Positions 21,420 to 24,913 of a stretch of 64,000 nt of DNA are shown piece by piece. The position numbers were made by a program, and so were the translations under genes. Below the pieces are notes generated by a model. It saw only the letters and a program-made list of their open reading frames with translations, made no database searches and was not told where the DNA came from. The stretch is from a virus (lineage: Duplodnaviria > Caudoviricetes), in the IMG/VR virus record IMGVR_UViG_3300044723_005784, positions 1 through 64,000 of that record; one strand, written 5' to 3'. Each line of letters starts with the position of its first letter. Position 1 is the stretch's first letter.

Positions 21420-21467
21420 ATATATATTCCTTTTTAGGTTTAGTATTTACACCTGGATAATACACTT

Positions 21468-21495
21468 ATTATAACTTACTATATAATTCTGTCAA
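21468..21495 (-). promoter_or_regulatory. Consensus sigma70 promoter
   Basis: TTGACA(21495-21490)-16 nt-TATAAT(21473-21468). Confidence 0.7.
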
Positions 21496-21502
21496 CCTAA
21501 AC

Positions 21503-21582
21503 GGATGAACTACGTTCATCCAAACACTTCACTAACGTTCCGTGTTTGATCTCTTAATAACTTGATCTCTTATAATTTGATA
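21503..21582 (-). repeat. GNA-loop hairpins and 11-bp direct repeats (origin-like)
   Basis: Perfect hairpin GGATGAAC-GTA-GTTCATCC (21521-21503); AAACAC...GTGTTT stem enclosing GAACGTTAGTGAA; TTGATCTCTTA at 21546-21556 and 21562-21572. Confidence 0.6.
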
Positions 21583-21594
21583 TTACCAAAGTGT

Positions 21595-21850
21595 TTCAGT
21601 CAGACGGAACCAATCCAAGGTTCCGTCGATTCTGGTGACATTACCGTCGTTTATCCAGCATCCGGAAGTAGGTATTTTTGGCTACTCTATGGGCTCTGAC
21701 CTTTCCCAACCTACGTCGATATCACGTATTTCTACGCTATCCCCAGCCTCGTTCCTAGTGCTAAAGGGTTTTCTAGAGTAATTTTTGCCCGCAACTCGCC
21801 AGTTCCAACCGCAGAAGCAGTCTCAAGGCGTTGATTCAGGGTTGCTATGT
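21595..21850 (-). ncRNA. Putative large structured non-coding RNA with pseudoknots, family unknown
   Basis: ORF-free region richer in GC than its flanks, with at least 9 complementary segments and a GAAA tetraloop hairpin; the G-U pairs work only on the minus strand. Confidence 0.6.
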
Positions 21851-21854
21851 AAGC

Positions 21855-22274
21855 CTATTTGTTAGATTCTGTAAGTATTTTTTGACTCTGATGAACACGA
21901 ACACGTATATGCCCGTTATACCATTCATCTGATTCTAAAACACGGTGCCTAAATTGTTCTCTTGCTTCAATGTAACTACACTCTCCCTTGCTGTAACAAT
22001 AGTAGAGTATCTCACGTTTAAAGCAGCTTTTGCCGAGTGCTTCGATGTCTGCCGTTAGTGCGTCTGATGAGCCATAATAATCACGCCAGTCTGATTCCAC
22101 AGTAGTGCGCCGTTTGTTTTTTCTGCCTTTGAGGGGTGGTTTAGATCGCCTAAATCGTGCCAGTTTTTTGCCAATGTATCGTCTGTTATTTGTAGTGTTA
22201 GTAATCAAGTAGACAAAACCTACTATGTCTTCTGGTAATTCGTCTACTGGTTGATCCTTGTATAACCACTTCAT
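21855..22274 (-). CDS. Minimal Seg-type GIY-YIG endonuclease-domain protein (139 aa from the ATG at 22274)
   Basis: GFVYLITN...YIGKK...YYGSS...FKREIL...E...YN matches the GIY-YIG/SegA N-terminal domain; Arg/Lys-rich insert; no C-terminal DNA-binding domain. Confidence 0.85.
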   Translation of the reverse strand: MKWLYKDQPVDELPEDIVGFVYLITNTTNNRRYIGKKLARFRRSKPPLKGRKNKRRTTVESDWRDYYGSSDALTADIEALGKSCFKREILYYCYSKGECSYIEAREQFRHRVLESDEWYNGHIRVRVHQSQKILTESNK

Positions 22275-22320: not shown

Positions 22321-23163
22321 TCACAATTCTACCTCACGCTGCCATTGATTTTTAAAACTATTTTCCACTGCACTACATGTTCTTTTGCAAGTTGGATTGG
22401 GTGTATCAGTATTCCATGTTGCTTGCACATCTGCCATTTGTAATGTATTATTTAAATTATTGCCTAACCAACAGCAAGGATGTGCATCTCCAGTTGCACT
22501 TATATACACACTTGATTCTTGTAAAGCCATACAGTTGATACTGCCCTGTTCTATTTTAGGATTTTCATAACCATCTGGAAATTCCAAACCATCTATAAAG
22601 GCTCGTTTACTTACTTTTGCTCTAAACCAGGCAAACCCTAGCGTTTTTGCCAATTCCATACACTCATCAACCTGATGCTGATTGTGTTTGTAAACTAACA
22701 TGTCCCAGTGAGCTTCCCCCCCAGCGTTGATATAACTTGTACAGTTGTCAATTAATTTTTTCCAGATAACATTACGTCTGTAGATATGATTTGTGTCTTC
22801 TAATCCATCTATACTAAAAACCACATAGTCTGTAGGCATTGTAAAAATACCAGCAAGCTCTTTCCACCAATTAGTGGACTGTATAGCACCGTTGGTGTTC
22901 ATTCCTAATGTAATGTTTGGATTTACGCTCCTAAAGTAACGATAAATTTCCAGTGTGTTGGCACCTGCAGCAGGATCCCCATAATTGCCGCACATAAACA
23001 TTTTATCCAAACTCTGGATATCAGTGCTACTTAACTTTGCTTGTATCTGGTCTACAGTTAAATGATTGTGCAAGTCTGTAAATAGTGGATTTGTAGATCT
23101 ACTACACAGTGGACATTTGGCTTGACATACGTCAGTTGGCTCTAAATGAAGTACTTTATACAA
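22321..23163 (-). CDS. Radical SAM protein with C-terminal SPASM/twitch-like Cys cluster
   Basis: CQAKCPLC (CxxxCxxC), GDP, TNG, FSIDG, and C-terminal C...PCC...CKRTC. Confidence 0.9.
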   Translation of the reverse strand: MYKVLHLEPTDVCQAKCPLCSRSTNPLFTDLHNHLTVDQIQAKLSSTDIQSLDKMFMCGNYGDPAAGANTLEIYRYFRSVNPNITLGMNTNGAIQSTNWWKELAGIFTMPTDYVVFSIDGLEDTNHIYRRNVIWKKLIDNCTSYINAGGEAHWDMLVYKHNQHQVDECMELAKTLGFAWFRAKVSKRAFIDGLEFPDGYENPKIEQGSINCMALQESSVYISATGDAHPCCWLGNNLNNTLQMADVQATWNTDTPNPTCKRTCSAVENSFKNQWQREVEL

Positions 23164-24913
23164 CTTCTACGTCCGTGTCATAACTGGTGTAGCCATTCTC
23201 TTTTACAACTTTAAGCAGGTTGTTAACTCTGCCTGTAAGCTCATCCTTGTGACTAACAAGCCAAATACTCTTGTTGCGGTCTCTTGCCATCCGTTTAAGT
23301 ACTGCTAGTGCACTCTCGACTCCACTAACGTCCATTCCACTGTCAACAACTTCGTCAATAAACAACAAGTTGATAGGATGATATAGGCTTTCCCAAACGT
23401 CTCGGAACGCCCAACTTAAACTTAAAATAAGTCTATTACGCTCTCCTCTACTAAGGTTGTCAAAGTCTAGATCCCGCCCCAGTTCCTGTATTTCTACGCC
23501 TAGGTCGTTCATAAAACGAACTGAATGAGGCAATCCCATCTTGTCAAGATAATGAGTTAATCGAGCATTCAAGAACTGCAAGTTCTGATCAATAATACGT
23601 TTGCGTATGAAACTATCTTTATTAGTTAATAATTTTAATAAGAAGTCCTGGTGATCGCGTATACGTACTAGTTCGTTAACTGTATTCCAGTCAACAGGCT
23701 CAACACCAGTTTGTGTCATCTCCACGATTTGTTCTGCGTATGGATCGACTTCATTACTGCGATTTTCTAGCTCTTTTGCTAAACTATCCAAACTACTACG
23801 GTGGTTATATGCATCATCAATTGTATCATAAAATACTTTTGGAGCAACTCCCAACACACCTTCACTTAATATTTCTAAATGATCCGCACGTTGCGTTTCA
23901 TTAGCAAGTATAGACATAGTTGCTTCTTGTCTAGTAGTTGCTTTACTAGCCAAAATTTCTTCCTGCTTGCCGTCGTGAATTTCCTGACCACAGGTACTGC
24001 ATTTATGTTCTTCAAGTAGTGCAATTTCTTTATCTAGACGTAGGATTAACTTTTCTTGCTTGGTATTATCAGTGTCAATTCCAACAATCCAACGCTCTGC
24101 TTCTTCTCGCCGTTTCCTTTGTGCATAAAAATCTTCTAGTAGTTTATGATTAGCAAGCTCGCTATCAATATCAATGTGTGCTAGATCCTCAATGCCAGAC
24201 TTTAGTTTTTTTACGTCCTCGTCACGTTTAGCATGCCAGAGACGCTGACGTTTCTTTAGACTGTCAATCTGCTCTTCAACTCGCTTGTTTGCGTCTTCAA
24301 CTGCCTTAACACGATACTCTTCTTCAGTAATCATGTCCTTTGTTTTTTTATTCAGATCTTTAAGTGCATCTGCTTTTTCACTTAACATAGTGATACCCAG
24401 CATCTGTTCAATTATATCACGCTGATCATTTGCACTTAAACTAAGGAATGGTTGCGTATAAGTGTTAAGCGCAACCAGATGCTTAAACATCTCATGACTC
24501 ATGTGCAACAATTTGTCAATATAGTGTTGCGTTTCTCTACTGTCGCCTTGTTGTTCTTCAGTTTCAACTTCGCCAACCATAAACTTGAGTACGTTGGGCC
24601 GACGGCCACGTTCAATACGATACGTAATGCCGTGTAACTCAAAGTCAACAGTAACCATCATAGACTTGCCGTTGGTCTTATTAACTAGGTTATCTTTTTT
24701 AATATTAGTTAATGCTTGACCGTAGAGAGCATAACTGAGTGCGTTGATGATTGTGGTTTTACCCGTGCCATTTCTGGCGCCTAAGTCGTCACCTCCTTGA
24801 TCTAAGTTTTCACCCAGCACCAGAGTTAAGTCTCTACGGTCAAAGTCTACAGCCTGAGTTTGATTGCCCACGCTCATAAAATTCTTTACGGTTAGTGTAT
24901 TAAGTTTAAACAA
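23156..24913 (-). CDS. gp46: Recombination endonuclease ATPase subunit (gp46 / SbcC-Rad50-like)
   Basis: KNFMSVGN, Walker A NGTGKTT, CSTC zinc hook, LSRGE signature, LLFIDE Walker B, SH. Confidence 0.95.
   Translation of the reverse strand: MFKLNTLTVKNFMSVGNQTQAVDFDRRDLTLVLGENLDQGGDDLGARNGTGKTTIINALSYALYGQALTNIKKDNLVNKTNGKSMMVTVDFELHGITYRIERGRRPNVLKFMVGEVETEEQQGDSRETQHYIDKLLHMSHEMFKHLVALNTYTQPFLSLSANDQRDIIEQMLGITMLSEKADALKDLNKKTKDMITEEEYRVKAVEDANKRVEEQIDSLKKRQRLWHAKRDEDVKKLKSGIEDLAHIDIDSELANHKLLEDFYAQRKRREEAERWIVGIDTDNTKQEKLILRLDKEIALLEEHKCSTCGQEIHDGKQEEILASKATTRQEATMSILANETQRADHLEILSEGVLGVAPKVFYDTIDDAYNHRSSLDSLAKELENRSNEVDPYAEQIVEMTQTGVEPVDWNTVNELVRIRDHQDFLLKLLTNKDSFIRKRIIDQNLQFLNARLTHYLDKMGLPHSVRFMNDLGVEIQELGRDLDFDNLSRGERNRLILSLSWAFRDVWESLYHPINLLFIDEVVDSGMDVSGVESALAVLKRMARDRNKSIWLVSHKDELTGRVNNLLKVVKENGYTSYDTDVEVV

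Follow-up and report, generated by a model that had tools for sequence, protein, structure and literature searches.

The RNA gene described here lies in a window of 64,000 nucleotides (nt), positions 1 to 64,000 of IMG/VR virus record IMGVR_UViG_3300044723_005784 (Duplodnaviria; Caudoviricetes), which is part of a 92-kb uncultured viral record of an estuarine T4-like phage; "the window" denotes this whole stretch. On its minus strand, the gene for a small GIY-YIG nuclease is followed by a structured, knotted, non-coding RNA gene of about 350 nt. A sequence-only reading of the window had proposed the two as a candidate nuclease-RNA system, in which the RNA may be partner, guide or scaffold of the enzyme, or else a new ribozyme. 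The comparison with relatives reported here suggests a different relationship, in which the RNA looks like a neighbour of the nuclease, not its guide, and like a gene of its own. As judged from the sequences compared, the RNA is a compact member of a family of twin-word RNAs of aquatic T4-like phages, its 5' domain being short and its word unusual.

Extent and architecture of the RNA

The core of the RNA consists of a 7-bp closing stem (stem A) round two hairpins and a 6-bp pseudoknot (stem B) that crosses it. From 5' to 3', the whole RNA and its parts are as follows.

21502..21855, minus strand: whole structured RNA, about 354 nt, its 5' end taken from a covarying closing helix and its 3' end from the shared module of GA-hairpin and terminal hairpin
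21787..21855, minus strand: 5' domain, comprising the closing helix GCUU/GGGC, GCAAC/GUUGC, CGCC/GGCG and an apical hairpin (from sequence and fold)
21774..21780, minus strand: stem A 5' strand UACUCUA, double changes at all 7 pairs in 98 distinct rows
21741..21768, minus strand: hairpin CCCUUUAGC/GCUGGGG with loop AGGAACGA (21749-21756), double changes at 6 of 7 pairs, loop invariant in the alignments
21718..21741, minus strand: hypervariable hairpin GAUA-GCGUA-GAAA-UACGU-GA-UAUC, from insert lengths and one-sided pair variation
21709..21714, minus strand: stem B 5' strand GUAGGU, forming the pseudoknot with 21668-21673; one compensatory pair and one GC/GU pair
21690..21708, minus strand: 4-bp hairpin UGGG/CCCA with the 11-nt loop AAAGGUCAGAG (from sequence and pair counts)
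21683..21689, minus strand: stem A 3' strand UAGAGUA, same pair counts as the 5' strand
21668..21673, minus strand: stem B 3' strand ACCUAC; the next four nucleotides, UUCC (21664-21667), are invariant (from pair counts)
21632..21658, minus strand: CUGG/CCAG hairpin enclosing twin word 1, GGUAAUGUCA (21636-21645) (from sequence)
21603..21627, minus strand: 9-bp hairpin GACGGAACC/GGUUCCGUC (21627-19/21611-03), 3' strand invariant, wobble changes in the 5' strand
21593..21602, minus strand: single-stranded conserved tail UGACUGAAAC (from alignments)
21578..21587, minus strand: twin word 2, GGUAAUAUCA, 9 of 10 letters as in word 1
21545..21581, minus strand: A+U-rich tandem repeat of period 16, 2.4 copies (UAAGAGAUCAA twice), between twin word 2 and the GA-hairpin
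21522..21547, minus strand: GA-hairpin AAACAC-GGAACGUUAGUGAA-GUGUUU, where model R2 (see below) matches at 21501-21547
21503..21521, minus strand: terminal 8-bp hairpin with a C-GUA-G loop, terminator-like (from sequence)

All helices named in the sequence-only reading (stem A, stem B, GGUCAGA/UCUGACU, GCAAC/GUUGC and the 9-bp hairpin) were found at the places it gave on the minus strand. Its borders for the element, from about 10 nt after the nuclease TAG to position 21595 and thus a length of about 260 nt, proved too narrow at both ends. At the 5' end, the closing helix GCUU (21854-51)/GGGC (21790-87) is GCUC/GAGC in the relative L008 (5 sequences, 3 distinct), and in L004, L005, L008 and L009 the closing helix covaries while a different hairpin replaces the apical one (5 sequences, 3 distinct). 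Because the first G of this helix lies within the nuclease TAG, the start of the RNA was placed inside the stop codon (21855). At the 3' end, conservation goes about 90 nt past 21595, to 21503. The GA-hairpin and terminal-hairpin motifs each occur once within the 64-kb window. Just beyond them lies a consensus promoter (21468..21495) that belongs to the next gene and marks the end of the element. The 16-nt tandem repeat of the window was also seen in L007.

A coding function of the core was rejected: in the 100 aligned relatives, the lengths of the insert have no period of 3, and a run without stop codons through the core extends over 25-58 codons at most. The plus strand of the window itself has open reading frames (ORFs) of 45 and 48 amino acids.

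Relatives of the RNA and covariation

A total of 401 relatives of the nuclease were found in IMG/VR and 80 loci were fetched; blastn found the RNA downstream of the nuclease in 23 of the 80. A covariance model of the core of the window's kind of RNA, here called type 1, was built on 133 positions (R1; nested helices only, stem B being outside the model) and matches 24 of the 80 nuclease loci as well as the window. A 29-nt degenerate pattern taken from the most conserved block yielded at least 120 further loci, so that the core is present in at least 144 IMG/VR loci. Removal of duplicates left 111 distinct sequences, and R1 confirmed all 100 of 100 representative sources.

Covariation was assessed in an alignment of 100 sequences (98 distinct rows) fitted to the nested-helix model, with 500 shuffles and slid controls. 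Paired cells made up 93.3% in the 98 distinct rows compared to 83.3% in shuffles, and double-sided changes were found at 16 pairs (316 cells) compared to 11.6 pairs (108.8 cells) in shuffles. None of the 500 shuffles reached the observed value on any measure, and in the slid controls at most 44.4% of cells pair. Stem A and the CCCUUUAGC/GCUGGGG stem both covary strongly in the aligned sequences. In stem A, double-sided changes were found at 7 of 7 pairs (e.g., AU 43, UA 37, CG 16, GC 2); its innermost pair is unpaired in 72 rows, usually as a U.U mismatch. The CCCUUUAGC/GCUGGGG stem shows double-sided changes at all but one of its 7 pairs and contains many U.G pairs. The hypervariable GAUA...UAUC hairpin has inserts of 10-89 nt (residues modulo 3 of 33/36/31 in the 100 relatives), and its pairs vary on one side only.

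The 9-bp hairpin was examined in all 111 sequences. Nearly all changes in its 5' strand are wobble-compatible (A/G opposite U, C/U opposite G), a CG pair is changed to UA in 8 of 111, and the number of sequences with a non-standard pair ranges from 0 to 5 of 111, depending on the position. These wobble-compatible changes establish the minus strand as the RNA strand, in agreement with the earlier assignment of the RNA to the strand of the nuclease.

The two proposed pseudoknots fared differently. In stem B, three pairs are invariant, one is GC in 85 rows and GU in 13, one is compensatory (UA 95, GC 3) and one is broken in 3 rows. In the UGGG/CCCA hairpin, two pairs are invariant and two show one double change apiece. 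The 29-nt pattern spans the stem B 5' strand and the UGGG hairpin, and as most relatives were gathered with it, the invariance of both is partly by construction. Three pattern scans of IMG/VR found no variant at the central A, G and G of stem B with the remaining pattern held fixed. The stem B pseudoknot is therefore plausible and thinly supported by the sequences, the compensatory pair speaking for it and the three invariant pairs leaving it without further covariation. The second long-range pseudoknot of the sequence-only reading, GGUCAGA/UCUGACU, showed no compensatory change in the alignment, and a G-to-A change makes an A.C mismatch in 4 of 110 sequences; it was not upheld. The GGAA of the AGGAACGA loop could pair with UUCC at 21664-21667, and as these columns are invariant no covariation signal is possible. 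Folding of the window sequence by itself gave a minimum free energy of -77.6 kcal/mol (z -1.09; 12 of 100 shuffles equally good), which is not better than chance. The single-sequence fold is thus uninformative, and the support for the structure was drawn from the relatives.

Twin words and a shared 3' module

Two short words flank the 9-bp hairpin and the UGACUGAAAC tail. In the window these words, GGUAAUGUCA (21636-45) and GGUAAUAUCA (21578-87), are identical in 9 of 10 positions. Of 110 distinct type-1 RNAs, 98 have two 7-mers that differ in no more than one of the 7 letters, and at least 9 word variants (ACAUGAA, ACAUAAU, ACAUGAU, ACGUGAA, GCAUGAA and others) are altered jointly in both copies. 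The window is one of the other 12 of the 110, in which these two places hold different words: GGUAAU(G/A)UCA in the window and L007, GGGAAAU in the L004 group, AGGUUAAUGUAA in L022 and L027, and AUCAUCAAGU in L119. Two further types of RNA found behind homologous nucleases, type 2 and cluster X (see below), also carry twin words by reading (AGAUAAU, GGAUGAA, AGAUGAU and others). The twin word is lineage-specific and carried in duplicate by all three RNA types. No complement of the word, or "anti-word," was found at a consistent place within the RNA. The word does not follow the protein, as nucleases 96% identical have different words and nucleases 49% identical have the same word; because protein identity and word are not linked, the nuclease was rejected as the reader of the word.

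A second model, R2, was made from 12 cluster-X and type-2 loci and contains no type-1 sequence; with just two base pairs in its consensus, it relies mostly on sequence, and its E-values come from a short calibration and are rough. R2 gave a single match in the window, with an E-value of 5e-4 at 21501-21547. Among 18 type-1 sources, the window being one of them, it matched 11 at E<=0.004 and 16 at E<=0.12, each time just 3' of the RNA. All three types have the 3' module in common: word 1, 9-bp hairpin, UGACUGAAAC-like tail, word 2, GA-hairpin and terminal hairpin. They also share a GGCU leader, which lies close to the stop codon of the nuclease or in it. Of 135 distinct 3' ends of nuclease genes, 54 have a GGYU that adjoins or overlaps the stop codon.

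Alternative cores behind homologous nucleases

Typing of the downstream DNA was performed for 72 of the 80 nuclease loci, namely those with at least 300 nt downstream. Type 1 was found in 23 of these, type 2 in 13 and cluster X in 27, which makes 63 loci with one of the three types and leaves 9 others. Among the 9 others, R2 finds the 3' module in 5, it is absent in L065, L067 and L068, and L041 ends too early; overall, 68 of the 72 loci hold an RNA type or its 3' module. Type 2 and cluster X are long gene-free stretches. The structure of cluster X was judged from visible compensatory changes and a consensus fold, that of type 2 by reading alone. Used with filters off, R1 gave chance-level matches at wrong places in cluster X and type 2, and homology of the cores was not detectable. 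At least three alternative cores hence occupy one slot on a shared leader and 3' module.

One of these cores has a catalogued part. Polynucleobacter-1 (RF01718) corresponds to the first 140 nt of the cluster-X RNA in 4 of 4 loci tested, with 75-115 bits (L024:3436-3572, L061:3501-3636, L052:3445-3585 and L071:3452-3591, RF01718 model). It makes up only the first third of the roughly 480-nt cluster-X RNA that follows the nuclease homologue. The middle of the cluster-X RNA shows a weak resemblance to cow-rumen-2 (E 0.067). Type-2 loci had no Rfam match.

The GIY-YIG nuclease

The nuclease is matched by Pfam PF19835 (SegE_GIY-YIG) with an E-value of 1.3e-36 over model positions 1-123 of 123. The match spans residues 12-132 of a 148-aa ORF with an upstream TTG start, which equals residues 3-123 of the 139-aa protein that starts at ATG. 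As the sequence-only reading had held, the protein is a GIY-YIG catalytic domain, which extends over nearly the entire 139 aa, plus a basic segment; with the Pfam domain filling nearly all of the protein, it has no appended DNA-binding domain. PHROG 447 (stand-alone proteins, 148-position profile) also matches. Across 146 distinct nuclease homologues, conservation is 98% or higher at the GIY, YIG, Glu and Asn positions, and solved structures gave no sequence match. PHROG 447 and many cyanophage and enterobacterial phage records label homologues of this nuclease "NAD synthetase," which looks like a propagated misannotation.

Linkage between nuclease and RNA

The closeness of RNA and nuclease noted in the sequence-only reading was also seen in the relatives. 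In 109 of 120 pattern-found loci, a GIY-YIG gene of the same orientation precedes the motif by 144-590 nt; 10 of the remaining loci are too near the contig end to be judged and one, L119, has no GIY-YIG gene. L119 carries a full type-1 RNA in a non-T4-like phage, with 6.9 kb of upstream DNA in which no GIY-YIG gene occurs. There (L119:6380-7290), the RNA lies about 440 nt after the terminator of another gene and about 1.3 kb before a terminase gene (a different terminase); an ORF resembling a His-Me finger lies 1.4 kb upstream of the RNA. Conversely, L065, L067 and L068 have the nuclease, and the RNA was not found there with R2 among the 72 typed loci.

Orientation, spacing and core type also vary. 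In L028, L029, L030 and L077, the RNA 3' module and the nuclease lie on opposite strands, the strand of the RNA in the last three being seen from the 3' module only. In L028 (2480-3060), the RNA is read opposite to the nuclease and diverges from it after a TTGACT/TATAAA promoter-like site. The spacing between nuclease and RNA ranges from 0 to about 1.2 kb, with 400-1200 nt in L001, L008 and L021 (in L021 the module is 1.2 kb downstream). On a tree of 57 nuclease proteins, core type changes at least 5 times for type 1, 3 times for cluster X and 3 times for type 2. A variable guide-like segment was looked for and no single-stranded one was seen: the ends of the RNA are conserved and the sole hypervariable part is a hairpin paired with itself. 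Obligatory pairing of nuclease and RNA in a fixed order and orientation was thus not found across the loci examined. The earlier suggestion that the RNA is partner, guide or scaffold of the nuclease is at odds with these unrelated cores, the variable strands and the solo occurrences.

Possible functions of the RNA

Taking these observations into consideration, an independent RNA acting in trans, with the nuclease as a neighbour, is the explanation favoured here, with modest confidence. The RNA gene would act in trans, with a rigid knotted scaffold displaying two copies of a short lineage-specific word to a putative reader, protein or another nucleic acid, that would bind twice or as a dimer. 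The GIY-YIG enzyme would be a Seg-type neighbour that cuts nearby DNA and so helps the RNA cassette beside it to be inherited, exchanged or amplified, and it would not use the RNA as a guide. DNA breaks beside the slot would explain the swapping of cores relative to the nuclease tree. A more far-reaching version, which must be called rather doubtful, is that twin-word RNAs represent a new functional class with interchangeable cores and two fast-evolving words, serving either as an origin pre-primer and iteron unit or as a decoy or sponge against host defence, and spread or amplified by the GIY-YIG enzyme in the manner of SegB.

Several points weigh against the favoured explanation. The near-fixation of the nuclease in its clade suits a domesticated gene more than a homing gene that is still active, and none of 110 assessable T4-like RNA loci (found through the RNA pattern) is without a GIY-YIG gene, so that a nuclease-free allele of the slot was not seen. 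The tight linkage, with the first helix overlapping the stop codon in the window, leaves room for a functional link. The reader of the twin words is only putative, and the SegB-like role would be assigned by analogy alone, to a protein without a DNA-binding domain. The 9-of-10 match between the words of the window has about 0.06 expected occurrences by chance between the two stretches (own arithmetic); as its own match is only 9 of 10, the twin word of the window rests on the same two places carrying other twin words in relatives. Finally, four RNA libraries were compared with the window, all of them assembled contigs. Contigs from two runs of one study match 21420-21719 and parts of the nuclease gene at less than 100% identity, for which reason they were taken to come from relatives; being assembled contigs, they are uninformative on transcription, ends or level, and gaps in their cover carry no meaning.

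Of the other explanations, a nuclease-RNA system, in which the RNA as guide, scaffold or activator supplies specificity to a domain-only GIY-YIG enzyme, would account for the same-strand position of the nuclease directly upstream in most RNA loci, for the RNA type or 3' module in nearly all typed nuclease loci and for a protein reduced to a catalytic domain with a basic segment, and the shared 3' module could be bound by a common protein. It is nevertheless the least probable explanation considered, as three unrelated cores go with one protein family and switch on its tree, the RNA can lie on the opposite strand (L028-L030, L077) with a promoter-like site of its own in L028, either gene can be found alone (RNA in L119; nuclease in L065, L067 and L068) and the cultured phages Melnitz-3 and S-RIM2 have the nuclease homologue and no such RNA, the word is independent of protein identity, and no single-stranded variable end was seen. 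A cis-acting 3' element of the operon gp55-47-46-(radical SAM)-nuclease, as a stabiliser, processing platform or terminator, is quite improbable. In its favour, the window RNA begins within the nuclease stop codon, the hairpin at its end is the region's sole terminator-like one, GGYU accompanies many nuclease stop codons, and no strong promoter was found between gp46 and the RNA by a scan for sigma-70-type consensus, T4-type middle and late promoters being outside that scan. The same opposite-strand loci and the promoter-like site ahead of the RNA in L028 speak against it, as do the position of the L119 RNA well past the terminator of another gene, the long spacers in L001, L008 and L021, and a size, pseudoknot and set of invariant loops beyond the needs of a stabiliser.

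A transcript of a replication origin is unlikely, though less so. Here the RNA would be a pre-primer that forms an R-loop in the A+U-rich repeat stretch, with the words and the 16-nt repeats as iteron-like DNA sites, which would suit the A+U-rich 16-nt repeat, the locus-unique C-GNA-G and GA hairpins and the consensus promoter at the 3' end, as well as the co-evolving direct repeats, which are typical of iterons; the slot also adjoins baseplate genes, as does T4 ori(uvsY). No initiator gene is linked to the slot, however, the strong RNA-level covariation of the core with its G.U pairs is not predicted by a DNA-site model, and G.U pairs, which could have told RNA from DNA, are absent from the terminal hairpin stems of the 12 cluster-X and type-2 loci. 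Very improbable, too, is a new ribozyme, whether it cleaves itself or not, perhaps as a reduced relative of group I introns or of the hepatitis delta virus (HDV) ribozyme. The invariant junction and loop nucleotides around the pseudoknot would be in keeping with it, and the topology is reminiscent of group I in its closing stem with two enclosed hairpins and an A-rich junction, in its crossing helix and in a hairpin placed as P7.1 is; it also resembles the nested knot of HDV. Against this, no Rfam ribozyme or intron matched at E up to 10, stem B lacks a bulge that could form a G-binding site, and either gp46 or a radical SAM gene lies upstream, depending on the locus. A group I intron was rejected specifically because there is no P8-like helix, only GCCAAAAAU between P3' and P7', and because there are no flanking exons, the upstream neighbour differing between loci and gp46 aligning to its last residue. 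An HDV-like ribozyme was rejected as there is no P4-like hairpin between the stem A 3' and stem B 3' strands and the base of stem A lacks a conserved G.U pair.

Comparison with known systems

The omega-RNAs of TnpB and IscB are pseudoknotted RNAs at the 3' end of a compact nuclease gene, obligatory and fixed in orientation, that end in a guide. The locus described here resembles them in this arrangement of gene and RNA; in contrast to them, its orientation, spacing and core vary, either gene can stand alone and no guide segment was seen. GOLLD and ROOL are large, ornate, phage-borne RNAs of unknown function, with no known partner and often near tRNA genes. Both kinds are large phage-encoded RNAs, the RNA of the window being smaller (about 350 nt) and without a sequence or model match to them. 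ColE1 RNA II and T4 ori(uvsY) represent folded origin transcripts that end in an A+T-rich, repeat-bearing stretch by a strong promoter, a layout that the window RNA shares.

Seg enzymes derive their specificity from DNA-binding domains. SegB of T4 is described as sitting in the tRNA cluster, cutting in tRNA genes and driving their inheritance (PMC2330249), and homologues of SegB are reported to be enriched next to tRNAs and to amplify neighbouring RNA genes that serve in anti-defence (PMC13096335). SegB has a DNA-binding part and recognises tRNA T-arm DNA. The likeness to the present locus is a Seg-type GIY-YIG gene beside stable-RNA genes in a T4-like phage, and co-inheritance or amplification of the RNA genes through recombination would explain both the tight linkage and the core swapping. 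The difference is that the nuclease of the window is a catalytic domain only and nearly fixed in its clade. In the cyanophage S-RIM2 (L203:2465-3155), a tRNA-Arg was found about 160 nt after the nuclease homologue, echoing the link between segB and tRNAs.

Catalogues, literature and cultured phages

In Rfam 15, no match to the window was found at gathering score or at E up to 10, which is consistent with the first impression that this is not a named RNA family. The threshold of RF01718 (at least 37 bits) was not reached in the window or in the type-1 loci L100, L167, L046 and L007, and the window and its type-1 relatives had no RF01718 match at any threshold tried. Polynucleobacter-1 nonetheless occupies the same slot, and the cluster-X RNAs that carry it share the GGCU leader, twin words and 3' module of the window. 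In PMC2864571 (Weinberg et al. 2010), the orphan motif Polynucleobacter-1 is listed under "Burkholderiales, fresh water/estuary." The type-1 core is thus new to the catalogues, and one module of the wider locus family is already known as Polynucleobacter-1.

No description of the type-1 RNA was found in the literature searched, including passages of PMC10690425 and PMC9964418, and PMC5737381 contains no mention of GIY-YIG or cow-rumen-2. Passages of PMC10690425 report about 10,000 candidate viral RNAs from IMG/VR, among which the type-1 RNA may be present unnamed. By blastn, none of the three RNA types was found in 50,697 phage records. The cultured phages Melnitz-3 and S-RIM2 have a nuclease homologue in other contexts, and reading of the downstream sequence showed no such RNA. 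Three core matches were obtained in prokaryote genome bins, all on T4-like phage contigs; L204, L205 and L206 are T4-like phage contigs (gp46, nuclease, RNA and baseplate genes) in metagenome-assembled genomes labelled Crocinitomicaceae and Candidatus Neomarinimicrobiota.

Locus setting

The genes and the promoter around the RNA in the window are as follows.

23156-24913, minus strand: gp46 gene, Rad50-like, first in the gene order
22321-23163, minus strand: radical SAM gene, between gp46 and the GIY-YIG gene
21855..22274, minus strand: GIY-YIG nuclease gene, 139 aa from ATG, stop included (PF19835, PHROG 447)
21468..21495, minus strand: consensus sigma-70 promoter TTGACA-16-TATAAT of the next gene, 12 of 12 consensus matches

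A 74-aa ORF lies downstream of this promoter on the minus strand, and T4-type baseplate genes converge from the plus strand. The window thereby conforms to the slot order seen in uncultured aquatic T4-like phages, gp46 ... GIY-YIG ... RNA ... baseplate genes. DNA nearly identical to this stretch was found mainly in estuary metagenome runs. One or two radical SAM genes are present in the window (22321-23163) and in L002, L007, L014 and L027 and are missing in other relatives; judged by this variable insertion, the slot from gp46 to the nuclease is plastic. The RNA as an intron of the radical SAM gene was rejected, as this gene is missing or doubled elsewhere and the nuclease and RNA remain. A search for tRNA and tmRNA genes found none in the window and none in 20 loci.

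Significance

The type-1 core is a well-supported structured RNA found in well over 100 contigs of uncultured estuarine, marine and freshwater T4-like phages. The modular RNA locus that contains it has entered the catalogues with a single piece, Polynucleobacter-1, in 2010. The locus also offers a caution, in that a neighbourhood of nuclease plus RNA need not mean an RNA-guided system. With its three interchangeable cores, a duplicated word that changes in concert and a domain-only nuclease as neighbour, it represents a target for RNA biochemistry and phage biology.

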